This document shows positions 7,332 to 37,783 of a stretch of DNA of 64,000 nucleotides, one piece after another. Positions within the stretch are counted from its first letter, which is position 1; the number at the start of each line of letters is the position of its first letter. This stretch comes from a virus (lineage: Duplodnaviria > Caudoviricetes). A program made the translations under genes and the position numbers. A model generated the notes under the pieces. It searched no databases. It was not told the DNA's origin and saw only the letters and a program-made list of their open reading frames with translations. The stretch covers positions 96,001-160,000 of the IMG/VR virus record IMGVR_UViG_3300032038_000001. One strand, given 5' to 3'.

Positions 7332-7552
7332 TTATTATAAAACCGTAAACTTAATAATTTCATATATATAATATTTTAGTGTAATAAGATAAATGATATC
7401 TTAATCTAACTTCATAGCGAAGGCGTCAGATTAAGATATTATATAGATTATTACATAAACAGCAGTAAGTGGTTTCTCGGAACTTTTATACGTTCCCTCT
7501 GTTTACCACAGTCAATAAAACAGAGTATAAGTACAATAAGGAGGTACTTATT
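7332..7552 (+). repeat. conserved structured leader element, copy 1
   Basis: differs from the reverse complement of 37565-37783 by one substitution and a 2-nt loop indel; homologous to 35613-35819 and 36341-36553. Confidence 0.95.
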
Positions 7553-7885
7553 ATGACATTAACAGAAAAAATGGAATTAGCAGAGTTGATTCGTGGTATC
7601 GTTCGTGAAGAGCTGCAGAGAGTGCTTGCGGAAAATAATAAAACTGTAGACAGCGGCACTACTACAACTACCATCGGCAGCACTGAAAATGCAAAGGCTT
7701 ATTTGAAGAAAATAAGCCCGATGATGAGTGAGTATGTGAGCCGATATACCCTCTATGATATCAGCAAAGAAATGAAGTCAGTACTTACAGCTGACGAAAT
7801 AAAGTACGTCATTATCCACCTGGACTCAAATAACTTGTGTAGCAAGAAAAACAGCAGAGACCTAAGTGAGATGCTGTTTAAGTAA
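7553..7885 (+). CDS. orphan cargo protein (110 aa, MTLTEKMELAEL...)
   Basis: AAGGAGG before ATG 7553; the ORF-track extension to 7469 lies inside the repeat; terminator at 7889-7931. Confidence 0.8.
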   Translation: MTLTEKMELAELIRGIVREELQRVLAENNKTVDSGTTTTTIGSTENAKAYLKKISPMMSEYVSRYTLYDISKEMKSVLTADEIKYVIIHLDSNNLCSKKNSRDLSEMLFK

Positions 7886-7930
7886 CAATAAGTGCAGTGT
7901 GAACAATTGTTCACACTGCACTTTATTTTT

Positions 7931-8131
7931 TTATTCAATTACAAAATATTTTCTTAAATAATCTTCCTGTGATAAATATTTTTTTTCATTTAGTTTACCA
8001 TGTTTTTTATTATAGGCTTCTTCTCTTCTAGTTTCGGCATCAGCACGTATTTTATCAATATCATGTTTTCGTTTATTCTCTCTTTTACGAGATATAAAAT
8101 TAAACTGTCTTCTACTAGAATATCTAAGCAT
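7931..8131 (-). CDS. small basic hypothetical protein
   Basis: RBS aaggag; directly downstream of the RNAP gene. Confidence 0.6.
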   Translation of the reverse strand: MLRYSSRRQFNFISRKRENKRKHDIDKIRADAETRREEAYNKKHGKLNEKKYLSQEDYLRKYFVIE

Positions 8132-8146
8132 ATAAATTTCTCCTTA

Positions 8147-10996
8147 TTATAATAACATTGAGTCTACATCAATTTGTCTGGATTTTACTAAGTTTTCATG
8201 GAATTTTTTCATTCCTAAACGTTTGGTAGTTTCAGCAGGACGGGAACATAATAAACCTATATTAATTTTACCAAGTTTATAATAGAAGTCACCTGCACAT
8301 TTGTTACACAGGCATTTAGTATTTCCATATCCTACACAGAACATGGGGCTTCTTAATTTAACAGTTTTGCCGATATATTTAGGAAGTACCTCGTTTGTCA
8401 AACAAATAAGTTTTGAACCTTCAATAATATATCTATATGCAAAATCGTCATAACCTTTTTGAGGTATAGTAATAGTTAAATATCCTAAACTTCCACAATC
8501 TGAATCTTTAGGTCCTAATACTTCTGCTTGCATTGCAGAGATAAGTTCTTTTGAAAGATAACCAGATACTGCTGTACCCTTTGCTTTAGGATAAGCTCCT
8601 CCAATAATTTCATTAGAGTGTGCAGGAATATCTTTTTTATCAAGACCATCAAGTAATGCATTAGTTAGAATATTAAATCCACCATACATTTCATTTTTAA
8701 TTGCACCTCTCATAAGGTACATGTTTTTATAGTTATTACCTATTGAACCACGAGCACCAGACACATAAAGATCCATACCAATATCATCTTTAAGAGCTTC
8801 TTTTGTTTTAGCAATAAGTTCTTTTTCAATGAGCTCAGATGCTTTCGGGTCTCCATTAGCGAGTTCATTTTTATACTTTTCTAAGAGCTCCTTTTTCAGT
8901 TTCTTTACTTCGGGTGGAACTTTAAGAATTGTTGGTGTAAATGATGTTGTTATTACTGCATGAAATTGGAGACCTAACCAGTCACGCATATCTGTATATT
9001 TATACATCTGATCAACTGTTATTTTGTCATCTTTTAATCCTGCAGTTATAGTATTTTCTACTTTTCCAAATCCACCATCATCAAGTACGTAATTGACATA
9101 TCCAAGTATATTTCCTAATCCAACTTCTTCAATCATTAATTTATTAAAAATAAATCTACCTAAAGTTGTTTTTGTAGGACTTGATACTAATGGATATTCA
9201 CTTGGAGTTATTGTTAATATATCAGTACATGAATATTTTGATTTACTTGCTTTTATAGGTTTTTTAACTTTTTCTTCAGGTTTCGTAGTTTCTACTGTTT
9301 CAATATTAACAGTATTACCAAACCACTCAACTAATTTAGAAAAAGTTATATCACCGGGTTTTAATGAAGTGAAGTATTCGGCATCTTCATTACTAAGGAC
9401 TCTATCAGAAGATTTTGGCTCTTTAGTCATTGTGTAGAATGTCTGTATAGCCTCATTTTCAACTTTACGTATATTTTTACCAGAAGCATTTATAAAGTAC
9501 GATTTACTATTCATAGCACGTCTACATTCTTCATTAGCTTCCTGAGTAAAAACAATTTTAACAGTCGTTTGGTCACCATCATAGTCGCCATCGAGTCCAG
9601 GTAAATATGAATTCGAGAACTGGACAGAATCAATGAATTTACTAGCCATTTTATCTGCGGGAACATCAAATTCTATACTTGGATACCACGGATATACTTG
9701 GCCATTGTATGAAGCTACAATAGTCTTTGTTGTTGATACTACTCTTATTTTTGCTAAGAATATACCAAACTCATCAAGTAGAGGATAACGTGTTACAAGA
9801 CAGTATTTATCTTTTGTAACATCATACGCAGCCATATATAAAATATCTGTCCATGTCAGATATCTATTAGCTTGTGTTGCTAACTCTACTTGAGTGTTAG
9901 GATCTAATATTTTTCCTTTAAATCTTAAATAACCTTTTTTATTAGTACCTTCTAATGGAACTTCAATCTTATTAAATCTTGACTCAGGGTCTTTGATATA
10001 GAGATCAATCATTTTCTTAAAATATTTTTCGTTAAATGTTGATGACGGATCTTTTAACTTAACTAAGCCAGTATCAGCATTGTTAAAACCATATACAGCA
10101 TTTGCTATTTGACTATTGTCAATAACCTCTCTCTCAAAAAAGTTTTTGACCCAATACATAATAAATGGATACGCCAAGCTACAAACTTGTGATATAGGAA
10201 TTGCTGCATGTCTGAAATCAGTTAACATGTCTTCAGGTCTTTCAGCATGAAACGTGGGTGCTGTTATAACAGTACGTGTACAATAGTCAACGTTTCTTCC
10301 TAATAAGTATTTACGTAGTAATCCATTTTTCTTTTCAAGCTTTGTTTTAAAATAATCATATATTTCAACAAGAGTATTCTGTATATTAAAATTAGTAGCA
10401 CTAAACTGGAAATCAAAGACATCTTTATCTTTAACAAGATTGGTATATCTAATTAATTGCGAATATAATTGATTTATATTTCCAGTTTCACCGCTACCAC
10501 TTTTACTATATGTTACATCTCTATAAAAAGCAGGTATTACTAAGCAATAATGAATAAATATTTCATTTTTTTTACTTTTGGTAATAAGGTCAATTCTTTC
10601 ATTACGCATGCCTTGTTCTATAGAGTATTCCCATTTTATTTTATTCCAGTTATTATAAAGGAAATCTAAACCAGTATCTCCATTATCATCTTTTACAAGT
10701 CTTCCATCCTTATCAATAGAATAATACTCCTCACCGTTTATAATTCTTTCTACATTTCTATACAAACGTTTCAATGCTTTATAAATATGAGGATGAAAAA
10801 AATAACCATGAAGATTGATATATGCAAAAGTTTCTTTTCTGGATTTTGTTGTTATTCCAAAAATTTCATTAGATATTAATCCATTTGGATGAGGTATACC
10901 TCCTCTTTGAAATAAAACACCAGATGTAACTTCTTGTAGATGATTCAATTCAATGAATTCTTCCATATTGAATAAATCAATTTTCAAATTTATCAC
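8147..10996 (-). CDS. multisubunit RNA polymerase beta'-like subunit, probably virion RNAP
   Basis: LLGRNVDYCTRTVI, TRYP, catalytic DGDYDGD, SGARGS, GTAVSGYLSKEL, DSDCGS, LRSPMFC..CNKCAG, trigger-helix-like LGMKKFH; late-type promoter at 11015-11026. Confidence 0.9.
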   Translation of the reverse strand: MINLKIDLFNMEEFIELNHLQEVTSGVLFQRGGIPHPNGLISNEIFGITTKSRKETFAYINLHGYFFHPHIYKALKRLYRNVERIINGEEYYSIDKDGRLVKDDNGDTGLDFLYNNWNKIKWEYSIEQGMRNERIDLITKSKKNEIFIHYCLVIPAFYRDVTYSKSGSGETGNINQLYSQLIRYTNLVKDKDVFDFQFSATNFNIQNTLVEIYDYFKTKLEKKNGLLRKYLLGRNVDYCTRTVITAPTFHAERPEDMLTDFRHAAIPISQVCSLAYPFIMYWVKNFFEREVIDNSQIANAVYGFNNADTGLVKLKDPSSTFNEKYFKKMIDLYIKDPESRFNKIEVPLEGTNKKGYLRFKGKILDPNTQVELATQANRYLTWTDILYMAAYDVTKDKYCLVTRYPLLDEFGIFLAKIRVVSTTKTIVASYNGQVYPWYPSIEFDVPADKMASKFIDSVQFSNSYLPGLDGDYDGDQTTVKIVFTQEANEECRRAMNSKSYFINASGKNIRKVENEAIQTFYTMTKEPKSSDRVLSNEDAEYFTSLKPGDITFSKLVEWFGNTVNIETVETTKPEEKVKKPIKASKSKYSCTDILTITPSEYPLVSSPTKTTLGRFIFNKLMIEEVGLGNILGYVNYVLDDGGFGKVENTITAGLKDDKITVDQMYKYTDMRDWLGLQFHAVITTSFTPTILKVPPEVKKLKKELLEKYKNELANGDPKASELIEKELIAKTKEALKDDIGMDLYVSGARGSIGNNYKNMYLMRGAIKNEMYGGFNILTNALLDGLDKKDIPAHSNEIIGGAYPKAKGTAVSGYLSKELISAMQAEVLGPKDSDCGSLGYLTITIPQKGYDDFAYRYIIEGSKLICLTNEVLPKYIGKTVKLRSPMFCVGYGNTKCLCNKCAGDFYYKLGKINIGLLCSRPAETTKRLGMKKFHENLVKSRQIDVDSMLL

Positions 10997-11014
10997 ATCC
11001 TTTATATTAAATAT

Positions 11015-11026
11015 TAACCTATTGTT
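11015..11026 (-). promoter_or_regulatory. putative late (non-virion RNAP) promoter AACA-N6-TA
   Basis: AACAATAGGTTA; the same pattern recurs upstream of many genes (~4749, 13120, 17655, 17683, 20700, 25886, 31075, 37811, 40937, 44265, 60390, 60432, 63175, 63212); matches the AR9 late consensus. Confidence 0.65.
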
Positions 11027-11076
11027 TTTAATGGGTATTTTTAGAAACAGACAAATATATAAATATTTTTTTAGAA

Positions 11077-12435
11077 ATGAGGGTAATGATAGATATGTTT
11101 AATAATGACTTATTTACTGAAGCATATTCAGGTAAAACTAAGACTCTTTTGAAAATAGAAAAACTTTTGGATGATATGTGTAATAGAATGAAAGTAGACC
11201 CGGATGCTGACTATACCAATTCGTTTGAAAATAAGCAAATCTGTAATCTTTTTAAAGAACAATTTGGATTTAAAAATGTATATATAATTTGGAAAAGAAC
11301 TCCTAGAATGGCTCCCAATGCATTTACATTAATGAGCGTTAATGTATTATGGAGAGATAAAGGAAAATTCTATGATAAGAACAAAAAAAATTTTTATGAT
11401 AAACAACATAAACATACAGTATATATTGAAGTATCACAATCAATGGCTAGAGATATAGACTTGAGTGGTGCTGAATATTTAGCTATAATTTTACATGAAA
11501 TTGGACATAATTTTGATACAAGCCCTTATATGGTAATTTCTGTAATATTTACTTGGATTAAATTATTGGCTGAGGTTATAACCAAAACTGTTATAATAGA
11601 TCCTGAAACACAAGAGGAAATAGTCATGAAGGGAATCAATCCTCAAGCAATTTTATCAATGGTAGTTAATACTAATCCAGGTAAAACCGTTTATGGATCA
11701 ATTCAACAAGCATTTGAATACATCAAGGATAAATTTAAACCTATAAAAAGATTTATGTCATTTTTAAGGATGATAACCAGTGAATTATATAAAGCTATAG
11801 TAAAAGTTACTACTCCTATTTTAATAGTTCCTCAGACTATAATGTATGGTATATTAAGTCCTGTATATCATTTAATGACTGTTCCGACACGTAAAACAGA
11901 AATATATGCTGATTCATTTGCATTATATTATGGCTATAGTGTTGAACTTTCCAGGGCACTTGATAAACTTACTGACGGACTAATGATACGTAATAGTAAA
12001 GGAAAAGTTGTTGATCTCACTGGTATTAACAGGGTACTTACAGATATTGCCATGACACAATATTATTTAACACTGGTTCTTATTGGTGCAGACCACGGGT
12101 CTAATGAAACACGTTTATTAACAAATATGAAAATTATTGAAAAAGAATTAAACGAAAATAAATATCCACCCGAAGTAGAAAAAGATCTGAGAAATCAGAT
12201 AAATGGATTAAAAGAAGTATATAGTGTATTTAAATCTGGAGGGGAACAATCATTAACTCTTTTAGGTGGTGCACGTGAAATAGTTGAATCAATATTTGGG
12301 GGAAGATCTGATTATATAGCTAAGTTTTTCCCATCATATATTGCAACTAAAAATGATGAACCTTTAAATTTAGAAGAATCTACTAATACAGAAATCGATG
12401 ATATAATTGATTCAATTATATCAAATGATGAGTAA
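11077..12435 (+). CDS. HExxH zinc-peptidase-like probable virion protein
   Basis: AIILHEIGHNF and EIYADSFA; N-terminal LFTE|A putative maturation site. Confidence 0.7.
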   Translation: MRVMIDMFNNDLFTEAYSGKTKTLLKIEKLLDDMCNRMKVDPDADYTNSFENKQICNLFKEQFGFKNVYIIWKRTPRMAPNAFTLMSVNVLWRDKGKFYDKNKKNFYDKQHKHTVYIEVSQSMARDIDLSGAEYLAIILHEIGHNFDTSPYMVISVIFTWIKLLAEVITKTVIIDPETQEEIVMKGINPQAILSMVVNTNPGKTVYGSIQQAFEYIKDKFKPIKRFMSFLRMITSELYKAIVKVTTPILIVPQTIMYGILSPVYHLMTVPTRKTEIYADSFALYYGYSVELSRALDKLTDGLMIRNSKGKVVDLTGINRVLTDIAMTQYYLTLVLIGADHGSNETRLLTNMKIIEKELNENKYPPEVEKDLRNQINGLKEVYSVFKSGGEQSLTLLGGAREIVESIFGGRSDYIAKFFPSYIATKNDEPLNLEESTNTEIDDIIDSIISNDE

Positions 12436-12481
12436 ATAAAAAAGAATCTGATACTTATCGTTAGTATCAGATTCTTTATTG

Positions 12482-13081
12482 TCATGTATTAGAAGAAGGA
12501 TTATGTGGCATAGCTCTCATCTCAACCATTAGATTAGCGATAAATGAGTCACCATTTTCTTGTAGGTATTTTTGATATCTATCCTCAAGTGCTTGTAAGA
12601 CATATACTTCAATATATCCTTTTGCTTGACTATCATAATATTGCAGGGTGATAAAAGATCGTATGCTTTCTTTATCGGATTCTATCAATAAATTCATGTT
12701 AGAATGGACTACATCTATTTTTGTATTTATTTGCTCTTGTTTTTCTTCGTATTTTGTCATCCTCGTTATTATTGCTTGATCTTTTTCTTCACTTAATTCT
12801 TTAAATTCACTCATCTTTGTATTAATATCGGTAATAGTACTATTAAAATTAGCAGACATATCTCTTACACTTTGAGCAAGTTCTAACATTTCATCTTTAA
12901 ATTCAGTATTATCGCGACTTTCATTTGCCTTTTGTAATATTTCAGCATCATGTTCAGCTATTTGTTTTTTTAATGTTTTATAAGCCTTAAGTATAAAACC
13001 ACCACAAACAACAATAACCGATAGAGCTATACCGAGCCCTGGAGCGACTGAATTCATAAAATCAATAAATGTTCCCTCCAT
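12482..13081 (-). CDS. N-terminally anchored coiled-coil protein, holin-like family of Firmicutes phages
   Basis: one TM helix, coiled coil, C-terminal KGYI..LEDRYQKY..NGDSFI..M. Confidence 0.55.
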   Translation of the reverse strand: MEGTFIDFMNSVAPGLGIALSVIVVCGGFILKAYKTLKKQIAEHDAEILQKANESRDNTEFKDEMLELAQSVRDMSANFNSTITDINTKMSEFKELSEEKDQAIITRMTKYEEKQEQINTKIDVVHSNMNLLIESDKESIRSFITLQYYDSQAKGYIEVYVLQALEDRYQKYLQENGDSFIANLMVEMRAMPHNPSSNT

Positions 13082-13266
13082 AATTCATATACCCTCCTTA
13101 GGTAGAAAAATGTATTATTATTGAATTGTTTTTATATGACTACAAGCTACTCAATAATTATAAATATATACAACATATAAATAAGGTTTTTTTATTATGC
13201 ACTAATTTTTCGTCCTTCCTGTGAAAATAATGTGATAGCAAAATAATTTGCTATCACATTATTTTT

Positions 13267-15897
13267 TTACTTCCTATTAATATCGAGATAATTGGCTAAA
13301 TAATACTTATCTTCTCGGTTTTTATTAAACCCAAGATCAATTATATCAACTGGATATGATGAGAACATGTCGTTATGAGTTATTAGAAAACTTTGTTCAG
13401 AACCAATTCTATCTATTTGATTTTCCAGTATTCTTATAAATTTTTCTCTGTTCTTTATATCTAATGGTCCATCAATTTCATCTAATAGCATTATATTATA
13501 TTTACTTAATGTTTGTGATGCTAAACCGAATGATAGTGCTATTGATAAGAAACTCAATTCTCCTTGTGATGCATATTTAACATCGTTTATTAACTCTCCT
13601 CTATTATAAAAGGGAATTGAAAACTCGGTAGGAGTAATTTTAAAATCGTCCAGATATATTTGACCATTAAAGGCTATATCCAATAATTCATTTGTTATTT
13701 CAACAGTATTACCAAGATAGCTTTTTATATAGTATAATGGCATTCCTTTTTTCGATGACAATGCCTCTTTGGTTAATGTCATTTCATCAAATTTTATATT
13801 GTATAAATCTAATTCTTTTTTAATAGAATCATATTGATCAATATTTGATTGTAATTTTTGTATTTCAGATGATAAGGTATCGATACTAAATTTAACTTTA
13901 TCAATATCACGTTCACATTCTCTAGCATTATCTCTGTTTTTTATATAAGAATTATAGTCATTAAAAAGTTTTTCATAAAGAGCTTCTAACTCATCATGTT
14001 TTTCGAAAGTTTCTTTCAAATCATTATATGTCTCAATCGTATTTGTATCATCTTTGATTCTCTCAGATAATTTTGATATTATCTTTTTAAGATCTATAAT
14101 CTGTTCTTGATATTCATTTATTTGATTACTAATGGATTCCATTTGTTCTGATATATATTTAAAGTTAGATGTCTTTTCATATCTTGATATGGATTTTTCA
14201 AGTTCTACCATTTTACTAGTTAACGATACATAATTATCATATTCTGTTACGGTTGAGAGAACATCATTCATTGCAGTTTCATTAAATATCCGAGTGCATG
14301 CTGCGATTGAATTGTAGATATTTACTGTTTTAAAATCATTTTGTATACTGGGTGGTAATCTCTCTATTATAGATTTATAATCTGCAAATGAAAGTAATAC
14401 ATCTCTTATATTTTGATATGCATATTCCATATCTTTATAAAAAGATAAATCTTTTTTAGACTCATGTTCAACTTCACTATTCTCGAGTAAATTCTTTACT
14501 TGAATCCATAACTGTTTTGCTTCACACTTATCATTATTACAGTTTTCAAATATTTTAGTATCATTAACTGTACTCATTCTTCTGGAGACAGTTTTTAAAA
14601 ACAACATCTGACTATCTTCATCAGAGTCTAAACCCATAATATGAGTATTTATATATTGTATCACATTACGATTATCTTGTAATAATGAAATAATCTTCGA
14701 CACAACTTTTTTTCCAAATTCATAAGTTTTATCAAGTTTATTTTGTGTATTTTTTATAAATACATAAAATTTATCAAATTCATCTTTGGTGAAATCATAG
14801 TTATATTCACCTAATAAAATTTCTATTGACGCTATTTTTTCTGTTAATTTTCTACGTTCCTCGATTAGAGATTGAAGTTCTTTGTCATTATTCTCCTCTT
14901 TTTGATATTGTACTTCAAGACTACGGTGTTGTTCCTGAAGTTGATTAAGTGTAGATAAATGATTTTGAATTAATATATTAGAGGAATCGATTTGTGCTTG
15001 ATTGCGTATATTTTGCTTTTCCAATTCAATGATTTTAGATGCATAAAAAGAAGCATCTGTTGATTCTAAATCATTAGCATTTTCGAGAATTTTATTCATT
15101 TTATCTAATTTCTTTAATGTACTAGATAACCTATCTTTTAGTGTTGCAGTATCTTCTATTTTTTCTATTTCATGATTATATATTGATAAAAGACCTGATA
15201 ATTTACCAAACTTTTCTTGCTCTTCTTCAACTCGTGCTTTCAAAATAACCAAACGTTGTTTTGCCTCTTTTTTATCTTGTATACCTAATTTATTCATTTT
15301 ATCAACCAAATGTGATATCATCGCTTTTACTTGAATTAGGTCATTATTAATTTTTTTATAATATGAGAGAAAAATTCCTATTTCATCAAGAAGTTTACTC
15401 ATGAAAGTTTTACGTTCAGTTTCTGTTAGGTTTATCATCGAGGTAACGTTACTACCTATTCTTATAAGTTTAAGATGATCTGGTTCGATACCTAACTCTA
15501 TTCTTACAAGTTCTTTAAATGATGTAACATTTCCATTCTCATTTAATTCATTACCATTTTTAGATATATAAGATTTAACGGAATGATTTTTATTAGTTTC
15601 TTTATGAGCTTTATATATATGCTTAATTATATAATAATCATTATTATAAGAGATATGGATTTCTTTATATCCATCTAGACCTGAAAGTATAAGATTTAAA
15701 CTATCACGTACGTCTAAATTTCCTACACCTGCAAATGGATGGAGTAGACTTAATATGGTAGTCTTACCCGAACCATTTGGTCCAATAAGTAAACAAACTT
15801 TATTCATTGTATTACTAAAATCAATACTGAATTCATTACAGTCCATTGCATTCTTTATAGCTGCAAAGTTTTTAAATATAATTTTTTCAATTTTCAT
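13267..15897 (-). CDS. SbcC/Rad50-like SMC ATPase
   Basis: GPNGSGKT, long coiled coil, ASQGE signature, MLLDEIDGPLD, LITH; start set at MKIEK after RBS gaaagga. Confidence 0.9.
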   Translation of the reverse strand: MKIEKIIFKNFAAIKNAMDCNEFSIDFSNTMNKVCLLIGPNGSGKTTILSLLHPFAGVGNLDVRDSLNLILSGLDGYKEIHISYNNDYYIIKHIYKAHKETNKNHSVKSYISKNGNELNENGNVTSFKELVRIELGIEPDHLKLIRIGSNVTSMINLTETERKTFMSKLLDEIGIFLSYYKKINNDLIQVKAMISHLVDKMNKLGIQDKKEAKQRLVILKARVEEEQEKFGKLSGLLSIYNHEIEKIEDTATLKDRLSSTLKKLDKMNKILENANDLESTDASFYASKIIELEKQNIRNQAQIDSSNILIQNHLSTLNQLQEQHRSLEVQYQKEENNDKELQSLIEERRKLTEKIASIEILLGEYNYDFTKDEFDKFYVFIKNTQNKLDKTYEFGKKVVSKIISLLQDNRNVIQYINTHIMGLDSDEDSQMLFLKTVSRRMSTVNDTKIFENCNNDKCEAKQLWIQVKNLLENSEVEHESKKDLSFYKDMEYAYQNIRDVLLSFADYKSIIERLPPSIQNDFKTVNIYNSIAACTRIFNETAMNDVLSTVTEYDNYVSLTSKMVELEKSISRYEKTSNFKYISEQMESISNQINEYQEQIIDLKKIISKLSERIKDDTNTIETYNDLKETFEKHDELEALYEKLFNDYNSYIKNRDNARECERDIDKVKFSIDTLSSEIQKLQSNIDQYDSIKKELDLYNIKFDEMTLTKEALSSKKGMPLYYIKSYLGNTVEITNELLDIAFNGQIYLDDFKITPTEFSIPFYNRGELINDVKYASQGELSFLSIALSFGLASQTLSKYNIMLLDEIDGPLDIKNREKFIRILENQIDRIGSEQSFLITHNDMFSSYPVDIIDLGFNKNREDKYYLANYLDINRK

Positions 15898-21681: not shown

Positions 21682-22470
21682 TTATTCAATAATCTCTATT
21701 GCTATTTTACCATTAAAATAAAATTTACGTTCACCATTATATAAATATCCATCATTATACCAGTCAAGTTTAGCTGTTGATATCGGTATATAATAAGCAT
21801 TTGGAATATAATCATCATCACCCACAACATCTATAGGGTGTGCTACAGTCATATGTCCCGTTGATTGTTGGTATGTCATATTATCATAATAGAATTCATT
21901 AGTAGTAGTATCAATAGTGGTTGTACATAAATAATTAGTACCAGATGAAGCAGCACCTGTAGGTACGGGAGACATATTTCTAAATACAGTTGATGGACGT
22001 ATAACTCCAATATTATTTTTCTTTGTTTTTGCAAATATAATGGTACCTTGTGAGATATTTGCATAAGACGCTACATCAGTAATATTGCATATACTAAATC
22101 CAACACTATTATTATTTATTTTAAATATATATCCTATAAAATTATAGAAATGATTATCATAGTCATTAGTACCACCGCTAGCATCTGAATCATAGTATCC
22201 AGTAGATGATGAAGTGTATGAACGCAAAACTAATAAAGTACGATTATAAGGATTATTAATGATAGCCTTAAATGTATATAATATTTTATCGTTTTTAATG
22301 AAGCTGATTTCAGGTACAGGAAGTTCATCAGTAGTGCCTTCGCTGTATACATTACAAGTGATTGAATCAAAAAAATCAGGCATATTATTTTCAAACCAAG
22401 ATTTTATATTTAAAAACAATGATGCATAATTAGAACATTTTCCAATAAAACATGTTTTTTGTACACCCAT
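21682..22470 (-). CDS. tandem paralog family member 4 (putative tail/receptor-binding protein)
   Basis: shares W-F-E-x-N-M-P, G-x-II-F-x-K/I-T, P-S and C-terminal (F/Y)-Y-x-N-G-x-I-A with its neighbours. Confidence 0.7.
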   Translation of the reverse strand: MGVQKTCFIGKCSNYASLFLNIKSWFENNMPDFFDSITCNVYSEGTTDELPVPEISFIKNDKILYTFKAIINNPYNRTLLVLRSYTSSSTGYYDSDASGGTNDYDNHFYNFIGYIFKINNNSVGFSICNITDVASYANISQGTIIFAKTKKNNIGVIRPSTVFRNMSPVPTGAASSGTNYLCTTTIDTTTNEFYYDNMTYQQSTGHMTVAHPIDVVGDDDYIPNAYYIPISTAKLDWYNDGYLYNGERKFYFNGKIAIEIIE

Positions 22471-23360: not shown

Positions 23361-24182
23361 TCACTGTAATTCAATAGCAATAACGCCATTGTAATAAAAT
23401 TCTCTCATCCCTATTTTTATTACACAATCTGAATTAGACCGTAGTTTAGCACTACTTGTTTGAAGTATGGATGTGTGTGGTAAATAATCATTATTTGGTA
23501 ATGCTATTGGAGTGAAGCAGGTCTTTGTTCTTGTTTTACTCTCATAGCCATATGGTAAGTTAATGGCACTACTCGTCACATTTTTTGTAATTACCTGCAA
23601 ATAATTATATTCTGTTTGTCTAGTACCATTTAAATACGTATCATTTACATGTATGCCGGCATAATGCAAAGATGGATTAACCGTTGCTATTTCAGCATCA
23701 TGTGTTTTCATAAAAATTACTACTCCAGGTCTTCTGTATTGAAAATCAAGCTCGACATTGTTGCATAAAGAAAATGCAACAATATTTTCACTAATTTTAA
23801 TTATTTCATAAATACAATTACAATACTCTGGAGAGGAACTATTTTTCATTAATGCCCAGTTACCCGAAACATCACTACCATCAGCACCATATGGTTTAGT
23901 ATAATATCCATCTAATGTTTTTGATTTGAAAAGTAGTCTACTATATCTCACATCAAGACTACTATTACCCGGGTATGTTGAAATAATACTTTTAATTATT
24001 TCTTCATTTTCATAGAAGTTTATAACAGCTCCTCTGTTGTTATAAGATTTTACTGCCAAAGAATCATCAACCGCAATATTATCGAAAAAATTTGGCATAT
24101 TTTCTTCAAACCAAGATTTTATATTATTAAACATTGCAGTATAATCATTAGGATTTTCTATTAGAAAGCGTTCTATACCCAT
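23361..24182 (-). CDS. tandem paralog family member 2
   Basis: NIKSWFEENMPNFFD...RRPGVVIFMKT...FYYNGVIAI. Confidence 0.7.
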   Translation of the reverse strand: MGIERFLIENPNDYTAMFNNIKSWFEENMPNFFDNIAVDDSLAVKSYNNRGAVINFYENEEIIKSIISTYPGNSSLDVRYSRLLFKSKTLDGYYTKPYGADGSDVSGNWALMKNSSSPEYCNCIYEIIKISENIVAFSLCNNVELDFQYRRPGVVIFMKTHDAEIATVNPSLHYAGIHVNDTYLNGTRQTEYNYLQVITKNVTSSAINLPYGYESKTRTKTCFTPIALPNNDYLPHTSILQTSSAKLRSNSDCVIKIGMREFYYNGVIAIELQ

Positions 24183-30238: not shown

Positions 30239-30255
30239 ATTTTTTTTTCACCTTC

Positions 30256-31038
30256 TTAAAGCATTATAATGTTACCATCAATATTTTCATAATAATTAGT
30301 TTTCATCTGTTCAAGAAATGCTATCATTTTTTCATTTCTTTTGTCAACTATTTTTATATAATTGAATGAATTCATGTTTGATTTCATAACTTCATCTTTA
30401 AGTGCTTCTTTAACTTTATCAACTTCTTGAATCTTTTTCATTGTATTTGGATTACTTCCACCATCTTTTATTTCAACCTCAAGGTTTAATGATGTAATAA
30501 AGAAGTCTGGTATATAGAAATGCTTCTCACCATTATACATATAATAATAAGTATGTGGTGATGGAGATATAACATCAGTTGGATCAAATGCTAAAGTTTT
30601 ATCAAGAAACTCTAAAAAGCTTCTTTCATATGAACCAACATAAACTGATTTATGTACATGATCTCTCCATACATATTCACCACTTATTTTTCTTTTAGCA
30701 AGCATGATCCTCTGCTGTTCAGGGTCATTGAGTAGATTGGTTTTACCATATTTACCTATCATTCTATTCTTGAAAGTTTCAACATATTTTTCTTTACACT
30801 TTGGATTATTACAAAACCTATTGTATTTATGTGTTTTATCATTCCAAGTAGTAGGTTTCTTACAGATTACACAATTTCCATGTGTTTTACCAGTTCTTAA
30901 AAAATATGCAAATTGCCACCCATCCATATCTTCTGGAATCATTTCGGAATGGTCTTTTTCAAGATGAGCAACTAAATCACTTACATCATAATAATACATA
31001 TTACAGAACTTACAATATACACGTCTTTTAGTAGCCAA
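30256..31038 (-). CDS. zinc-finger plus TnsA-like PD-(D/E)xK nuclease (head-completion-nuclease-like)
   Basis: CKFC..H...H, CVICK, GSYE..F, YIPDF...EVEIK. Confidence 0.75.
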   Translation of the reverse strand: MATKRRVYCKFCNMYYYDVSDLVAHLEKDHSEMIPEDMDGWQFAYFLRTGKTHGNCVICKKPTTWNDKTHKYNRFCNNPKCKEKYVETFKNRMIGKYGKTNLLNDPEQQRIMLAKRKISGEYVWRDHVHKSVYVGSYERSFLEFLDKTLAFDPTDVISPSPHTYYYMYNGEKHFYIPDFFITSLNLEVEIKDGGSNPNTMKKIQEVDKVKEALKDEVMKSNMNSFNYIKIVDKRNEKMIAFLEQMKTNYYENIDGNIIML

Positions 31039-31147
31039 AAGAATTCACCAACTTTCATAAATTACTCGTTAATCTAATGTTTTTATAAGGTATTTTTACA
31101 CATGAACTTTATTATAATATATTTTTTTAATGAGGTGATTATAAATT

Positions 31148-31750
31148 ATGAACACATTTATTTTACAAGAAGCTGTTGTAAGAAGATTCTCAGATGGAGA
31201 AATTACATATGAACAGGCGACTTTCCTTCTTGATGCAATCACTAATAGGTATGATTATATTACAGAAGGAGCAAACATTGATTATATTAAGCAGTTTAGA
31301 AAAACTTTAAAAGAATATAAGATGCATGTAAAAATATTAAAGAAAATAGCTAATAAAGGTGAGTTAAAAGATAAACCTGAATTTGAAAAAGAGAAAAAGG
31401 CAGCTATAAAAGCTCTTGAAGAAGGCTTAAGTATTATAAAGTCTACACCATCGGATTTAGTCTCGACTATTCTTTCATACTTTGCTATTGGTTTAATAGA
31501 TACTATACAATGGACGATACCCATATTATTAACGTTTGGTCTTGCAGCCTATGTAGTAGCTATAAAACAGACTGTTGAAATAATTACTGGTATTGTTACA
31601 GCAGTCAAGAAAAAAGATGAAGAGGATATAACTGATAATCTTAACTTATTTAAAACACGATATAAGATGTATATTAATCAATTTAAGAAGTCCATTGATG
31701 CAATTGAGAAAAAGTATTTTGCTAAAATTAACGGTGAAGAAAAGAAATAA
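31148..31750 (+). CDS. probable internal head protein
   Basis: FSDGEITYEQATFLL motif shared with 26395-26715; YITE|G site. Confidence 0.6.
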   Translation: MNTFILQEAVVRRFSDGEITYEQATFLLDAITNRYDYITEGANIDYIKQFRKTLKEYKMHVKILKKIANKGELKDKPEFEKEKKAAIKALEEGLSIIKSTPSDLVSTILSYFAIGLIDTIQWTIPILLTFGLAAYVVAIKQTVEIITGIVTAVKKKDEEDITDNLNLFKTRYKMYINQFKKSIDAIEKKYFAKINGEEKK

Positions 31751-31888
31751 TATAAAAAAAAGACGAGATGTATTTAATATATACATCTCGTCTTTTTATT
31801 TTACATTAAAATAATTTTATTATATTAAAATTCATCACGGTGACATTGTAATAAGTCACATGATAATCTAACGAAAGGGTGATTAATC

Positions 31889-32305
31889 ATGGCGGTTGAT
31901 CCAACTTATGGAGTCAATAATTTTAATAAAGCAAAAGTCTTAACAGAAGAAGAAACATATGTGCATAACATATTAACAATTTTACTCGGTAAACCAGGAT
32001 TCTATCCGTCAATACCATATCTTGGAATGGATATACAACAAGAATTGTATAAATTTGAAGATGAGATAGATACTGAGAAACTCAAGGCACAATTAGTATC
32101 TCAGTGTAGTGATTTTTTACCATTAGTAAAAAATGGAGATTTTGATATCATAACTACTACTTACAATAATCAAACTCTGTTAATTTTTCAGTTACCTGTT
32201 ATAATTAATAATAATCATATTGCACTTGCAGTTGGTATCACTTTGAATAAAGGACAACTAGTTTATCAATTTACAGAAAATCCTATAAATACACAAATTA
32301 TTTAA
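31889..32305 (+). CDS. baseplate wedge protein (T4 gp25-like)
   Basis: ILLGKPGFYPSIPYLGMDI pattern. Confidence 0.7.
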   Translation: MAVDPTYGVNNFNKAKVLTEEETYVHNILTILLGKPGFYPSIPYLGMDIQQELYKFEDEIDTEKLKAQLVSQCSDFLPLVKNGDFDIITTTYNNQTLLIFQLPVIINNNHIALAVGITLNKGQLVYQFTENPINTQII

Positions 32306-32327
32306 TTACAAAAGGAGGAACTAAAAA

Positions 32328-34052
32328 ATGTCCAATAGCATTAATGAAATCAACAATAATAGTTTTTTTAGCGATTCAGGTGCACAGAGAGATGAGTCTA
32401 TTCCTCTCGATTCGCTTATAAAAGCTAAAAAAGAGAATACGCCTCAGCAGACTGAAAAGAAGAAAGAACTTTCTCCACTTGAGCAGATGAAAGTATCAAA
32501 AGAAAACAATAACAGTGGTATGGAAATTTCTAATGAAGCTCTGAAAGAAAAGGAATTGAGAAATCCTATTATGGATGACCAGCGTCTTAGTGAATTTGAA
32601 GAGAGAGAATTAGAACTTGATGAAAGTATAAATAAGAGAAAAGCTATTGTTGTAATTAAGGAACCAACTAATAGCTTTGAATATATGAATTTAATGATGG
32701 AGCTTGATTCCGTTGTCCTCCATGACGATGGAACAGCAACTATTGAATATAAGGATAAGCACGGAAATCCTATGACTCCTCAGTATATTCGTCTTCGCGA
32801 AGATGGAGATGAGGCTTTCGATCTTGGAAAGGATAAGAAAGCTATGGCTGAAAGAGCTAAGATGAAGGATGTTTCAGCACCGCCCGAGAATAATGACTCT
32901 GGAGCAATTGCTGGAGATGCTCCTGATGATGAACTTAATAAGACAGTTCAGGTTCTTATTGATAAGACCGGACTTGGAACAGACTTTATTTTCAATGATG
33001 AAGAAAAGAAAAAACTCACTGAAGCTCCCGAAATTCAAATTCGTGAAATTGAATTTGTTGATATTGAAAGTATCATTTCTAAGAAAAGTGAAAAATCGTT
33101 TCAGGAATCTATATCAGCATATCAACTTTCAAATTCTAAAACTACCATTTGTTTCCCGGCTTCAGGCTTTAGAGCTCAGATGAAGGGTCTTACATATGGT
33201 GAGATGGGTGACATTTCACTCTCTATGGATTCAGTTACATTTGATCAGTATAGAAAGCGTCTTTCAATCATATACAATAAAATGGTTAATAGCAATATTG
33301 GACCATTTAAGTCATTTGAAGACTTCCTTAAGGGATTTGCATATGTTGATATTCCTATGGCACTTTATGGTCTGTATATCTCAACTCAGTCAGAAATACA
33401 GACGATTCAGCTTCGTTGTGGTAATGAAGAGTGTGGTAAATCATTTAATTGGGAATTCAGCACACGCAGTGTAATAAGACTTGAGAAGTGCTCTAAGCAG
33501 TTCCTTGAAAAGATGAAGGAAATTGCAACTTCTCCCGCTTCTGAATATGACAAGATTCGTGAGAAATCTGCTGTAATGAATTCTAAATATGTAAAATTAC
33601 CTTACTCTGGATTCATCGTAGAGATGGGTATTATTTCAGCATATGAATTTCTTTATAATTTTATTCCAGTTCTTGATGAAAAGACATTTAAGGATGCTTT
33701 TGGTGAAGATCTGAATGAAATTTATATGAACAACGTTCTCTTACTTACAACAGTTAAGTCTGTCCGTGTTCCTAATGACGATGGTACATATTCTGTTGCA
33801 GAAGGATACAAGGATATTCTTGATGCTATATACAGAATTAATCCTGAAGAAATTAAGCTCCTTGCAGCTATTACAAATAAGCTTACAACTGAATATCAGT
33901 CATATTTCTCATTTGGCGATGTTACTTGTCCTCATTGTGGAAATGTAACACATGACCTTGACCTGACTATGGATGACCTGGTTTTTCAGACATATCAACG
34001 GTTGCTGAGTACCGAAATCAATGTACAGAACATGCAAAGTTTCTCGATGTAA
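32328..34052 (+). CDS. baseplate-hub/tail assembly chaperone (T4 gp26-like, zinc-binding)
   Basis: PASG, CGNEECG and CPHCG, ending DDLVF at a slippery site. Confidence 0.7.
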   Translation: MSNSINEINNNSFFSDSGAQRDESIPLDSLIKAKKENTPQQTEKKKELSPLEQMKVSKENNNSGMEISNEALKEKELRNPIMDDQRLSEFEERELELDESINKRKAIVVIKEPTNSFEYMNLMMELDSVVLHDDGTATIEYKDKHGNPMTPQYIRLREDGDEAFDLGKDKKAMAERAKMKDVSAPPENNDSGAIAGDAPDDELNKTVQVLIDKTGLGTDFIFNDEEKKKLTEAPEIQIREIEFVDIESIISKKSEKSFQESISAYQLSNSKTTICFPASGFRAQMKGLTYGEMGDISLSMDSVTFDQYRKRLSIIYNKMVNSNIGPFKSFEDFLKGFAYVDIPMALYGLYISTQSEIQTIQLRCGNEECGKSFNWEFSTRSVIRLEKCSKQFLEKMKEIATSPASEYDKIREKSAVMNSKYVKLPYSGFIVEMGIISAYEFLYNFIPVLDEKTFKDAFGEDLNEIYMNNVLLLTTVKSVRVPNDDGTYSVAEGYKDILDAIYRINPEEIKLLAAITNKLTTEYQSYFSFGDVTCPHCGNVTHDLDLTMDDLVFQTYQRLLSTEINVQNMQSFSM

Positions 34053-34204
34053 CTCTTTCTTTATTTAAAGGAGAATTGAGTCTTACTGATATTTTGCATG
34101 AACTGCCATTTCGTAGGTTACTAGAGTTACGGTCTGCTCGTGTCAATCGGTTGATGGAAGAGTCTAAAGAATTGGAAAAATCCAGTATAAATAAATCTGG
34201 TTAA
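33986..34204 (+). CDS. putative -1 frameshift extension of the tail assembly chaperone (72 codons)
   Basis: the -1 frame is open from just before G-GTT-TTT-C (33980-33987) to TAA 34202-34204; SDISTVAEY...LSLTDILHELPFRRLLELRSAR. Confidence 0.6.
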   Translation, partial: SDISTVAEYRNQCTEHAKFLDVTLSLFKGELSLTDILHELPFRRLLELRSARVNRLMEESKELEKSSINKSG

Positions 34205-34271
34205 GACCGAAAAAGACGATAAAAGGAATCATTGTGAATAAGTAATAAATTTCTTTCTTTATTACTTACCT

Positions 34272-34631
34272 ATGTTCAAAAATTATTTAAGTTTATTAAA
34301 GAAAGGAATTCGCCAAATGAAGAAGACAATGACTGAGTATATATCAGCATTATCTACTAATTCATTCGATATACTTGAAAGTATCATAGAAAAGAAATAT
34401 CAAAAATTTATTACTTTATACTGGATGCTAAAAGATTATAGTGATAATATTTTTAGTCTTAAATATAAAGATACAAAAGATCAAGTTCTTAAAATAGAGG
34501 TTGAGCTTTCAGGTATTGATATAGACAAGGTTATGTCAGACCTTCATGACAGCATATCGGATGATTGTTCAGTACTGATATATAATGAAAAGAAAAAAAT
34601 TCATATTGAAATAACAAAAGAAGAAAAATAA
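34272..34631 (+). CDS. hypothetical protein (likely start ATG 34317)
   Basis: RBS gaaagga before 34317. Confidence 0.65.
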   Translation: MFKNYLSLLKKGIRQMKKTMTEYISALSTNSFDILESIIEKKYQKFITLYWMLKDYSDNIFSLKYKDTKDQVLKIEVELSGIDIDKVMSDLHDSISDDCSVLIYNEKKKIHIEITKEEK

Positions 34632-34676
34632 AAAAAATAAGCGGTGTGAGATTAAATCTCACACCGCTTATATTAG

Positions 34677-35612
34677 TTATTGAGGCTGCCTTTTTGCCAT
34701 GCAAGCCTCAATGTACTCACATGTTGTATTCACATTATTTTCCAAGTGAGCACATACTGAAGGCCACTGCCACTCTCTTATAACACCATCTTCGCAACAT
34801 TTGAACATTACATCGTTACGTATCATTTTATTATTTATATGTCCATCAACGATATATTTATTCTCTATGTTAGTATTAAATATATCATCAATTACTGAAT
34901 CAATCGTGTCAATGACATTCTCATAATGCTCTCTATTGATTTTCATTATCTTACTACGAATGTAGCGTTCTTCGTATCCCGTAACTCCGAAATCATCCTG
35001 TGAGAACTTCAGATATTTATCTACAAGTTCGTTCTCTATTCTTTCCCAGTTTATCTTCTTCGTCGTCATCATTATTTGATTATATAGCAGGCCTATACAA
35101 TCATCAATGCGTGCCGCCCACACCTCGCGGGATTTATACGGGCACTCATTTATGGGCGGATAGATGAGAACTGCTTCCTCAGATGAGAGTTCGTCTGCTT
35201 CTGCTTCTGTTTCGTCAACTGTTTCCTCAACTGTTTCTGTTTCGTCAACTGCTTCCTCAACTGCTTCCTGTTCTTCCTCAGATGAGAGTTCAGCGGCTTC
35301 TGCTTCGTCGACGTCGTTTTCCACCATTATCTCATCATCGTCTGCTTCGATTTCAGCATCAAGAGCATCGTCAGCATCATCCGAGAGTTCAGCTGCTTCT
35401 GCTTTGTCACCCGAGTCCTGCTCTTCCTCAGCTGCTTCTGCTTCCGCTTCGTCGACGTCGTTTTCCACCATTATCTCATCATCGTCTCCACCGAACTCAG
35501 CAGCATCAAAGGCCTGCTTAGCAAGTTTCCGCTGTCTCAGGATTGCAAAAATGCTTATTCCTGAAAGTCCTACTACACCAGCACCGATAGCGATTTTAGT
35601 TGTCTTTTTCAT
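34677..35612 (-). CDS. membrane-anchored, highly acidic repeat protein (cargo of leader copy 2)
   Basis: N-terminal TM helix; DDDEIMVENDVDEAEA x2, AELSSEE, VDETE repeats. Confidence 0.85.
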   Translation of the reverse strand: MKKTTKIAIGAGVVGLSGISIFAILRQRKLAKQAFDAAEFGGDDDEIMVENDVDEAEAEAAEEEQDSGDKAEAAELSDDADDALDAEIEADDDEIMVENDVDEAEAAELSSEEEQEAVEEAVDETETVEETVDETEAEADELSSEEAVLIYPPINECPYKSREVWAARIDDCIGLLYNQIMMTTKKINWERIENELVDKYLKFSQDDFGVTGYEERYIRSKIMKINREHYENVIDTIDSVIDDIFNTNIENKYIVDGHINNKMIRNDVMFKCCEDGVIREWQWPSVCAHLENNVNTTCEYIEACMAKRQPQ

Positions 35613-35819
35613 AAGATTACCTCCTTGTAATCATACTCTGTTTTATTGACTGTGGTAAACAGAGGGAACATACAAAGTTCTGAGAAACCACTTAAATGTT
35701 TTTATGTAATAATCTATATATAACTTAACCTGATACCTTCACTATGAAGTTAGGGTAAGTTATTATATATCTTATTACACGGAGATAGTATATATATGAA
35801 ATTATTAAGTTTACGGTTA
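35613..35819 (-). repeat. conserved structured leader element, copy 2
   Basis: homologous to 7332-7552 with compensatory stem changes. Confidence 0.92.
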
Positions 35820-36004
35820 TAAGAATAAAAATACTCTTAAAAAAATCAGGAACATATAAACCTGTATAAATAAGAATACATTCTTTCTCCTTTTTTCTCA
35901 TAGGACCTTAAAAAACTTGTAATTTGAAACTACTAAAAAATAAATAAGTCTTTTATAAAATAAAAAAAAGAAGCCCATACTATTACAGTATGGGCTCCCA
36001 TTAT

Positions 36005-36340
36005 TCAATCATTGGAAGGGGATGGATGGTGCCATCGTTCATCGATCCACCCCCATGTTATGAATGCCTTTCCATTGCATTCACCGTACCCTCTCATTAT
36101 GGCGTCTATGAATATACGCCCTTCCCTGGGAACAAACCCTGAAAAATCAGGGTTTAATTCATGGATGCCGAATTCGAACAGAACCCCTCTCTCAGACATA
36201 GCTGAGGTTATGTCTGAGAGAAGGTCTTCGGTGAGAAGCCCTCTAAACAATTCTAGCTCCATGTTTTGTTGAAAAAGCTGAGGACTCATTCTCCCAGCCT
36301 TTTCAACAAATTCATCTATCTGATTAATGATATTTTTCAT
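36005..36340 (-). CDS. orphan cargo protein (leader copy 3)
   Basis: AGGAGG RBS; terminator at ~35963-35997. Confidence 0.8.
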   Translation of the reverse strand: MKNIINQIDEFVEKAGRMSPQLFQQNMELELFRGLLTEDLLSDITSAMSERGVLFEFGIHELNPDFSGFVPREGRIFIDAIMRGYGECNGKAFITWGWIDERWHHPSPSND

Positions 36341-36553
36341 ATGATTACCTCCTAGTAATCTTACTCTGTTTTATTGACTGTGGTAAACAGAGGGAACATA
36401 CAAAGTTCCGAGAAACCACTTAACTGTTTTTATGTAATAATCTATATAACATCTTAACTCGATACCTTCGTTATGAAGTTGAGGTAAGTTATTATATATC
36501 TTATTACACATAAATTATATATATATGAAAATATTCAGTTTACTGTTTTATAA
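36341..36553 (-). repeat. conserved structured leader element, copy 3
   Basis: homologous to 7332-7552 with compensatory stem changes. Confidence 0.92.
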
Positions 36554-36635
36554 TAAAAATATTATACCATTTAAAAATAATACTCTTAAAAATTAGGAAC
36601 ACAAACCTGTAAAAAAGGAGAAAGAAGGTATTCTT

Positions 36636-37373
36636 ATGAAAGAAATAGTATCAACAATCAACGGTAAAAAAACAGTAATGTCTATTCAGACGAACGGAGT
36701 AACTATTACAAAAAATATTGACGATAGTAATAGTTACGAAATAACCATCTATTCATCTCGATTGAAGAAGATAATAAAGAAAAAAATTATCCCAATCATT
36801 GATTGTATGAGTGATAATGATACAATTATAATTACTCCATCTGTTAGTAACAATGGGGTTCATACACGAATAGTGTGCGGGATAAATAAAGAAATGGTTG
36901 AATCATTATTATTATGGTATAATTCATTAGAATGTATTTTATCAATAAACAGATATTTGATTAAAGAATTCAACGAATATACTGATTATGAATTTGATAT
37001 AAAACGTGTGATTTATAGCAATTCTCATTCAACATTTTGGGAAACTATTAATAAAGATAAAGAATTGTATTTCACTAAAATAAATCAATACCAAAATGGT
37101 ATTATGTATATAACCACTAATAAAAATACTCATAGAGAAATTACATCATTGATAGCAAGGTCAACTTCTAAAATGACTCAATCAATTATTGATAAAGAAA
37201 TATCTTTTGATAATATTATTTCTATCAAAAGACTTATTAATGAAGAAAATATGAGTATTGATGAAGCGATAGAAAAAATTATTGGTGACACTAGTCGTTT
37301 CAACAGATATTTTAATAATTATGTGATACGGTATAAAAATTTAGATAAAATAATTCATTCATTAATAAAATAA
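36636..37373 (+). CDS. hypothetical protein
   Basis: RBS aaggag; 245 aa. Confidence 0.75.
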   Translation: MKEIVSTINGKKTVMSIQTNGVTITKNIDDSNSYEITIYSSRLKKIIKKKIIPIIDCMSDNDTIIITPSVSNNGVHTRIVCGINKEMVESLLLWYNSLECILSINRYLIKEFNEYTDYEFDIKRVIYSNSHSTFWETINKDKELYFTKINQYQNGIMYITTNKNTHREITSLIARSTSKMTQSIIDKEISFDNIISIKRLINEENMSIDEAIEKIIGDTSRFNRYFNNYVIRYKNLDKIIHSLIK

Positions 37374-37423
37374 ATAAAAAAAAAGAGATACTAGTCTTGT
37401 AAGACTAGTATCTCTTCTTTTTT

Positions 37424-37564
37424 TTAGATTAAAGCATTAACAATTGCTACAACTATTCCAAGAATGAGTATGACTGTCAACGCGACACCGATATCGTGAT
37501 CACGCTTCAATCTCTTGTAACCCTTGAATTTTCTTTCGCCGTTTTCTTTTCTGTTATTTTTCAT
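37424..37564 (-). CDS. 46-aa single-TM orphan protein (cargo of leader copy 4)
   Basis: MKNNRKENGERKFKGYKRLKRDHDIGVALTVILILGIVVAIVNALI after AAGGAGG. Confidence 0.75.
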   Translation of the reverse strand: MKNNRKENGERKFKGYKRLKRDHDIGVALTVILILGIVVAIVNALI

Positions 37565-37783
37565 AATAAGTACCTCCTTATTGTACTTATACTCTGTTTT
37601 ATTGACTGTGGTAAACAGAGGGAACATAAAAGTTCCGAGAAACCACTTACTGCTGTTTATGTAATAATCTATATAATATCTTAATCTGACGCCTTCGCTA
37701 TGAAGTTAGATTAAGATATCATTTATCTTATTACACTGAAATATTATATATATGAAATTATTAAGTTTACGGTTTTATAATAA
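37565..37783 (-). repeat. conserved structured leader element, copy 4
   Basis: near-identical inverted copy of 7332-7552. Confidence 0.95.

Follow-up and report, generated by a model that had tools for sequence, protein, structure and literature searches.

A shuffled family of phage leader cassettes with a predicted, covariation-supported triple helix

Why would a jumbo phage repeat one structured leader of about 220 bp directly upstream of different orphan genes, and what might such a leader do for them? The question is raised by a 64,000-nucleotide stretch of phage DNA, here called the window, which is contained in a 250,395-bp virus record. The 949-aa gene adjoining the first leader copy (8147-10996, minus strand), a phage RNA polymerase beta' N-terminal subunit, matches AR9 g145, which is annotated as a virion RNA polymerase subunit, and the genome also encodes ThyA, DHFR, dUTPase and tubulin; we therefore regard it as an AR9/phiKZ-related jumbo phage, the DNA of which probably contains thymine. 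Relatives of its lysin carry Ruminococcus names, and its close strains come from AUXO contigs, which we take to be a sheep rumen assembly. The host is probably a rumen Ruminococcus, host and habitat both being read from sequence comparison.

The repeated unit and its promoter

All four full copies of the original prediction were found where it had placed them, at 7332-7552 on the plus strand and at 35613-35819, 36341-36553 and 37565-37783 on the minus strand, with pairwise identities of 84-99% (E 1e-60 to 1e-113) and with exactly one substitution and a 2-nt indel in the loop of hairpin P2 separating copy 1 from copy 4. Across the genome there are nine full cassette copies and a tenth, at genome 67.3 kb, that has a variant 5' part and the same domain II as the full copies. 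Each unit runs in the order promoter, 5' hairpin (domain I), pseudoknot (domain II), SD-masking hairpin, one gene and terminator, and a single open reading frame followed by a terminator lies behind each of the nine full copies. Folding z-scores were -5.25 for copy 1 and -3.29 for copy 2. The layout, which had been described as fixed, proved to be modular: relatives carry domain I without domain II and domain II without domain I.

In unit 1 (plus strand), the predicted promoter at 7343-7378 comprises the CGTAAA block, a spacer and the box TATATAAT, and is followed by the putative +1 at G7379, domain I at 7379-7456, domain II at 7469-7525, the SD-masking hairpin at 7526-7552, cargo 1 (a 110-aa orphan) at 7553-7885 and a terminator hairpin at 7890-7931. 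The remaining three units lie on the minus strand. Copy 2 (35613-35816; promoter 35781-35816, domain I 35704-35780, domain II 35636-35691, SD hairpin 35613-35635) leads cargo 2, a 311-aa acidic protein with a hydrophobic N-terminus (34677-35612), and the unit ends in a terminator at 34627-34671. Copy 3 (36341-36545; promoter 36510-36545, domain I 36432-36509, domain II 36364-36419, SD hairpin 36341-36363) leads the 111-aa orphan cargo 3 (36005-36340), with a terminator at 35960-35999. Copy 4, near-identical to copy 1 (37565-37772; promoter 37737-37772, domain I 37659-37736, domain II 37592-37646, SD hairpin 37565-37591), leads cargo 4, a 46-aa basic peptide with a hydrophobic tail (37424-37564), and its terminator at 37368-37423 is common to a convergent 245-aa gene. 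Each of the four window units has its own terminator, as had been claimed, in the form of a strong hairpin with a U-tract (-22 to -28 kcal/mol). The statement that similarity ends at the ATG needs an exception, as copies 1 and 4 have about 15 further nucleotides in common, and the statement that the downstream genes are unrelated needs another, as the 311-aa cargo has two cassette-led paralogues outside the window; these three cargo proteins are paralogues and all others are orphans.

A weight matrix for the promoter block found 12 sites in the genome, compared to 0-2 in shuffles, and further sites in the related records G002, G007 and G019, mostly 5' of small orphan genes. The 5' block thus defined reads as a general promoter of this phage clade. 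An AT-rich box lies 6 nt upstream of a G at the foot of domain I, and the mapped consensus of AR9 early promoters consists of an AT-rich box, 6 nt and then a G at +1 (PMC5312081). The spacing is the same, with an additional upstream CGTAAA block in the present phage, and we infer that the G below domain I is where transcription begins. The same study reports long 5' UTRs with an uncharacterised motif for AR9 (PMC5312081). A covariance model of the leader (R1) had no match in AR9, LPJP1 or JD-Fnp1, and its only match in S6 was weak and consisted of a terminator plus an RBS.

Domain I is a hairpin of 77-78 nt in the window copies. In 13 distinct versions from several phage species, its apex ranges from 13 to 36 nt and its flanking stems covary, while the 2x5 internal loop, in which AA faces G-Y-D-U-C, never changes. 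An invariant loop within a variable stem suggests a recognition site, and the internal loop is probably the site of a protein or a nuclease. In the hairpins of SP82, SPO1 and T7, RNase III cuts within the internal loop. By eye, variant copies break the consensus of the hairpin-ribozyme loop A, the kink-turn, loop E and the tetraloop-receptor. A search of viral sequences with the domain I pattern gave 14 matches, all at chance level except one already-known strain. A partial Pfam survey of the phage identified no candidate binding partner for the leader RNA, and a search of the phage for RegB was blank, as was its positive control.

The pseudoknot and its predicted triple helix

The main new result concerns domain II. 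Over its four helices, 88% of alignment cells are paired and 16 of 23 pairs have two-sided changes, values that none of 500 shuffles reached; compensatory changes were in this way shown to maintain the predicted helices. From 5' to 3', domain II comprises an S1 strand, a six-nucleotide loop, the hairpin P2, four pyrimidines, one purine and UU, and then two nucleotides, the S1 partner, GUCA, an A-rich stretch and a purine strand. In copy 1, S1 is formed by 7469-7472 and 7506-7509, the putative third strand is 7473-7478, P2 is 7479-7496, S2 is formed by 7497-7503 and 7519-7525, and the GUCA loop begins at 7511.

A parser that prescribed only the duplexes and GUCA, and placed no constraint on the six-nucleotide loop, was run over 1.57 Mb. 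It returned 25 distinct sequences, all of them 5' of an SD and an ATG, and none in 20 genome shuffles. In the parsed copies, the loop that had been left free mirrors the duplex base for base, in three states: UCUC with CUCU/AGAG, UUUC with CUUU/AAAG, and CUUU with UUUC/GAAA. Variable triples are canonical (U.A-U or C.G-C) in 99 of 100 cases over the 25 copies, against a permutation mean of 69 and maximum of 89, although the 25 copies are kin, so that the signal comes to no fewer than three independent changes across three strands, with one exception, and not to 99 events. At the two junction positions all 50 triples are U.A-U, the skipped (inverted) pair is always purine-pyrimidine (22 G-C and 3 A-U), and one or two C.G-C triples are kept in every parsed copy. 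The register is consequently four triples, one inverted pair and two U.A-U triples; the exact register of MALAT1 likewise has four triples next to the hairpin and then an inverted pair.

With high confidence, although from covariation in sequence, we propose that domain II holds a pyrimidine-motif triple helix in a MALAT1-like register. It is strongly predicted to form an H-type pseudoknot in which the loop of pyrimidines occupies the stem 2 major groove and hairpin P2 closes the triplex. The original prediction had described a pseudoknot, and the triple helix is an addition to that description. Two readings of the same letters at the DNA level were considered. GUCAA as an antisense -35 box was rejected, with L3 variants breaking TTGAC and -10 matches being poor in three of the four copies, and H-DNA is unlikely because the mirror arms measure 4-6 nt and their position is tied to the +1 and the SD.

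Gain, loss and exchange of units between strains

Comparison of strains showed that units are gained, lost and exchanged, and that the element is multicopy. In L133 and L137 the whole of 34682-37783 is absent, and the unit 2 terminator is kept in strains that have none of the three units; in L134, L135, L139 and L142 unit 2 is present and units 3 and 4 are absent. Unit 3 is missing from most strains, and relatives of cargo 3 are limited to its own cluster. Cargo 4 and its cassette were inserted together: strains with an empty copy-4 site retain the same terminator behind an A-run, and filled and empty sites differ in having the A-run at the junctions and nothing else, with neither terminal repeats nor a target duplication seen there. 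MITE- and IS-like elements, in contrast, have terminal inverted repeats and a target-site duplication. A second site of turnover lies downstream of the GH25 lysin (38029-38904), where an empty hot-spot in the window (38935-38977, minus strand) corresponds to one to three other units with cargo of 60-186 aa in strains.

Cargo and leader can also part company. Depending on the strain, one gene of 60-63 aa is preceded by a cassette of type A, by one of type C or by no cassette, and the orthologue of cargo 1 in G001 lies behind a different cassette sub-type with a different SD hairpin, in a record that also has a truncated unit inserted. New cargo was found behind cassettes in L036 (which has one extra unit), G005, L142, L143 and L145, and at a place where L145 carries a single unit, two units with different cargo stand in G005. 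The 311-aa cargo 2 measures 239-291 aa in strains. These gains, losses and swaps of sub-types before the same gene bear out the prediction of a portable, shuffled module, and the possibility that each copy always leads the same cargo did not hold, as cargo differs between strains. In some strains the genes of 186 aa and of 60-63 aa occur without a cassette, so that neither has an absolute need of the leader.

Tandem units have duplicated upstream segments in common, and cassettes are mosaics of one another. Together with the strain differences, this fits homologous recombination, which has been shown for the PeSLs of the T4-type phages RB49 and phi1 (PMC2839356). In PeSLs, recombination also gives rise to mini-circles. 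The likeness to PeSLs extends to a repeated early promoter and SD directly 5' of ORFans in variable regions, and to gains, losses and replacements between strains that are bounded by repeats. The parts of the module differ. PeSLs have a sigma70-like promoter, whereas here the -35 position is occupied by CGTAAA and not TTGACA, with the spacing of the AR9 virion-RNAP type; the PeSL stem-loop is a terminator overlapping the promoter, whereas here the hairpins lie downstream of the predicted +1, have no U-tract and are accompanied by separate terminators; and in place of that stem-loop there is a predicted transcribed leader of 90-170 nt that is covarying and multi-domain. The cargo genes have a GC3 of 39%, compared to 22% for other genes (p = 5e-6), which suggests a foreign origin or host-adapted codons. 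No donor of cargo genes was found, and atlas matches for cargo 1 and cargo 3 were at chance level. We infer that the cassettes capture genes.

Possible roles and known range of the leader

A stem of 5-7 bp holds the SD in its loop and 3' arm, and varies in sequence while pairing is kept. Such a hairpin is present in 10 of 10 cassettes and in 33 of 93 other genes of the genome, with mean energies of -6.1 and -2.3 kcal/mol, respectively, and its occurrence follows domain II: it was found in 33 of 35 leaders with domain II, compared to 4 of the 18 promoter-led leaders that have no domain II (p = 1e-7), and among these four are two with a minimal GUCA pseudoknot. Part of this coupling could come from shared descent, although the SD hairpin itself covaries. 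Several G002 leaders have domain I without domain II, and in domain-I-only leaders the binding sites are open and A-rich. The triplex ends 0-4 nt from the SD hairpin, 9-14 nt upstream of the SD and 21-27 nt upstream of the AUG, the latter distance corresponding to the edge of the 30S footprint. A conserved anti-SD switch is unsupported, as no conserved alternative pairing with the SD was found (-5.9 kcal/mol for a leader's own pairing and -5.6 for permuted ones, range -12 to -2). The coupling of domain II to the SD hairpin points to translation control, with mRNA stabilisation as its main rival.

We hold, with moderate confidence, to a model in which a clade of rumen jumbo phages uses the leader as a modular cassette for early expression, with domain II and the masked SD acting as one translation-initiation unit. 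The virion RNA polymerase would initiate on the G with which domain I begins, and the early transcript would thus open with a protective hairpin. The rigid triplex, just outside the ribosome footprint, would serve as a landing platform for the 30S subunit, S1 or a phage protein, and would open or gate the SD masked by the 5-7-bp stem, as the pseudoknots of tisB and timP do. Those leader pseudoknots are a precedent for the activation of translation from a sequestered SD (PMC11295053, PMC7708055); they too lie upstream of a masked SD, and some of the present cargo are likewise small membrane peptides. The tisB and timP pseudoknots are about 100 nt upstream, whereas domain II abuts the SD hairpin in an element that is multicopy and mobile. 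Copies would spread and mix by homologous recombination between repeats, in PeSL style, and each new orphan gene would thereby receive a ready-made, dosed early expression unit.

A possible alternative, though one we consider rather unlikely, is that the leader is a 5' stabiliser, in which the primary 5' end is shielded by domain I, or domain I serves as an RNase III site, and the triplex forms a mechanical block to host RNase J immediately 5' of the RBS, so that phage early mRNAs outlast host mRNA. Domain I begins at the predicted +1, a position from which domain II is some 10 nt away in the short copies; RNase J1 roadblocks are established in Firmicutes (PMC3997798), host mRNA declines in AR9 infection (PMC5312081), and known ENE triplexes are stability elements (PMC7583470). 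Stabilisation leaves unexplained, however, why an SD-masking hairpin is selected almost only with domain II, when masking removes the ribosome as a roadblock, and no RNase III gene was found in the phage genome, although the host enzyme would suffice. An RNase J roadblock and the translation-initiation unit are not mutually exclusive.

The likeness of domain II to the ENE of MALAT1 and MEN-beta, which rests on covariation and not on structure determination, lies in a G/C-interrupted pyrimidine internal loop between two stems and an encoded purine strand (PMC7583470). A true ENE analogue would go further: the mRNA would be cut or trimmed as far as the purine strand's end, and what remained would be a stable leader RNA of 60-150 nt whose 3' end is a blunt triplex and which would act in trans, perhaps as a decoy for a protein. 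The layout of lower stem, interrupted pyrimidine loop, upper stem and encoded A-rich strand is that of MALAT1, and the genome encodes a 3'-5' exoribonuclease-like domain (PF16473). The MALAT1 ENE, however, has ten triples where the present element has six, and it sits at a processed 3' end with a tRNA-like element, whereas domain II is in a 5' leader in which an SD hairpin and AUG follow every copy and neither an RNase P/tRNA-like cut nor a free 3' end is predicted; the variable triples here, in a further difference, covary between C.G-C and U.A-U. As there is no tRNA-like or other cleavage signal downstream (no tRNA was found in the 64-kb window), the SD hairpin follows so closely, and a gene stands behind every parsed copy, this reading is improbable.

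Slightly less probable still is a riboswitch or pH sensor, in which a ligand at the S1/S2 stem junction, or protonation of C.G-C triples, would set folding and hence SD access. The H-type pseudoknots of telomerase, SAM-II/SAM-V and guanidine-III likewise place loop 1 in the stem 2 major groove and have a loop 3 rich in A (PMC7583470, PMC5696562), and guanidine-III makes a turn at G24 that puts U25 and A27 into the minor groove and resembles the invariant GUCA (PMC5696562); a C.G-C triple in every copy would suit a pH sensor. Against this, hairpin P2 is inserted in loop 1, there is no ligand-binding core (the purine-rich guanidine core is missing), the SD lies outside the pseudoknot, and no Rfam riboswitch scores. 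In triplex riboswitches the expression platform overlaps or alternates with the aptamer, whereas no conserved alternative pairing with the SD is present here, and the cargo genes have no common metabolic theme. That the repeat is selfish or neutral, with its structure a relic of spread by recombination, is very improbable: degenerate and truncated copies exist (G000 at 90.8 kb, G001 at 7.6 kb) and copies 1 and 4 are near-identical, but every helix has compensatory changes, which extend to three strands, between phage species that are about 70-77% identical, and neither terminal repeats nor a target duplication was seen. By these comparisons, the element appears to work like a PeSL without the promoter and terminator features of one, to be folded like an ENE without its 3'-end feature, and to be no known riboswitch.

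A broader idea goes beyond the translation-initiation unit. Tentatively, phages may have reached the ENE-type triplex independently and use it, free of ligand, in a mobile 5' module that licenses the translation or survival of new early genes. Possibly a phage protein also recognises the GUCA and AA/GYDUC motifs, so that transcripts of the phage would be marked as self. Two reviews of triple helices in natural RNAs (2020, 2026) list riboswitches and group II introns for bacteria, confine stability triplexes to eukaryotes and their viruses, and make no mention of phage; if true, the ENE-type reading would add a kind of triplex expression element absent for phages from those reviews. A triplex of about 55 nt with three-strand covariation is in itself a rare direct evolutionary signature, of a size that suits crystallography or NMR, and the shuffling, readable strain by strain, reveals the way in which a jumbo phage installs new genes and sets their dose. 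The cassette could be of use as a portable part for gene expression in Ruminococcus and other Clostridia, and it flags orphan genes predicted to be expressed first, a short list for host-takeover and anti-defence screens.

Finally, database searches support the view of the cassette as a real, mobile and uncatalogued phage leader family, with its predicted triple helix supported by covariation. As the original prediction had supposed, it belongs to no named family in the curated RNA listings covered: there was no genuine Rfam match at gathering or relaxed E-value thresholds, and no match in named phages or bacteria. Relaxed Rfam searching brought up cow-rumen-4 RNA (RF02948), which also has a 3' hairpin with the SD in its loop, at 19.9 bits, far below its gathering score of 48.5 and with only the SD hairpin aligning. 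Named phages gave chance AT-rich matches at the promoter by blastn, and an exact pattern found 3 matches in 185,579 bacterial and archaeal genomes, none of which form the required helices. Domain II is limited to the phage clade (G000, G002, G005, L125-L143 and L145); most other related jumbo phage records, many of them fragments, contain no convincing domain II, and the weak matches in relatives are a minimal pseudoknot in G019 and one weak match in G010. A separate observation concerns G003, in which another leader, unrelated to this one, is present in four copies; it too has crossing helices and a hairpin with the SD in its loop, suggesting convergence on the same design.

Cassette cargo and decayed cassettes in strains

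In the strain L133, a cassette carries a strain-specific cargo of 186 amino acids (8153-8713, minus strand) that has weak matches to sigma70 region 4 and to the RNA polymerase alpha-CTD and is a candidate modulator of host transcription. In a second strain, L143, about 300 nt of GC-rich, seemingly non-coding sequence (~2560-2870, minus strand) lies between a cassette-led gene of 136 amino acids and the next terminator; a search of this stretch against Rfam returned no match. A decayed cassette was also found upstream of a methyltransferase-like gene of 187 amino acids (sequence piece L074, ~850-1550, minus strand; genome 90.2-90.8 kb), and this unit of decayed cassette and gene is missing from the strain L036.

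The GUCA loop and leader families of related jumbo phages

The GUCA sequence, invariant in the domain II loop of the cassette, also occurs in minimal pseudoknots or hairpins upstream of the RBS in two related phages, G019 (13.5 and 80.5 kb) and G002 (85.7 and 162.5 kb), and GUCAA is present in the loop of P2, the hairpin inserted in domain II, in type C copies. These occurrences hint at a possible recognition motif. Jumbo phages G003 and G007 carry repeated early-leader families of their own that are unrelated to the cassette, consisting of a pseudoknot and SD hairpin in G003 (16.3, 101.1, 110.2 and 236.5 kb) and of a single hairpin in G007 (45.3, 119.1 and 185.9 kb).

Further leaders, repeats and gene content of the genome

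Two other promoter-led leaders were observed in the same genome. One is a long leader with a promoter, multi-helix elements in tandem and a terminator, followed by a gene of 777 amino acids (piece L153, ~1900-2300, minus strand; genome 60.4-60.8 kb). The other is a structured RNA under the cassette promoter type with a duplicated RBS and an ORF of only 8 codons (piece L076, ~410-620; genome 164.3 kb, plus strand), which is conserved in the related phage G005.

The genome also holds a second family of repeats, in which R and S motifs resemble those of a group I intron core. Its copies lie at window positions 48434-48607 and 48916-49091 (minus strand), with another copy near 44305 and further genome sites at 171.5 kb and 71.3 kb. 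Rfam at the gathering threshold gave no match to these repeats, and the family is also multicopy in G003, G008 and G019.

Other duplicated sequence includes a G-rich island with a purine tract of about 100 nt after it (genome 63342-63537 and 221518-221736), a short DnaB-like coding segment occurring twice (window 4445-4553 and 53254-53362), and a short coding segment at the starts of paralogous genes within the array at 21.7-25.1 kb (window 22366-22430 and 24081-24145). Genome-wide, the gene content includes polyphosphate kinase, anaerobic RNR and LRR proteins of the BspA type, and the phage encodes an ORF of 4,215 amino acids.
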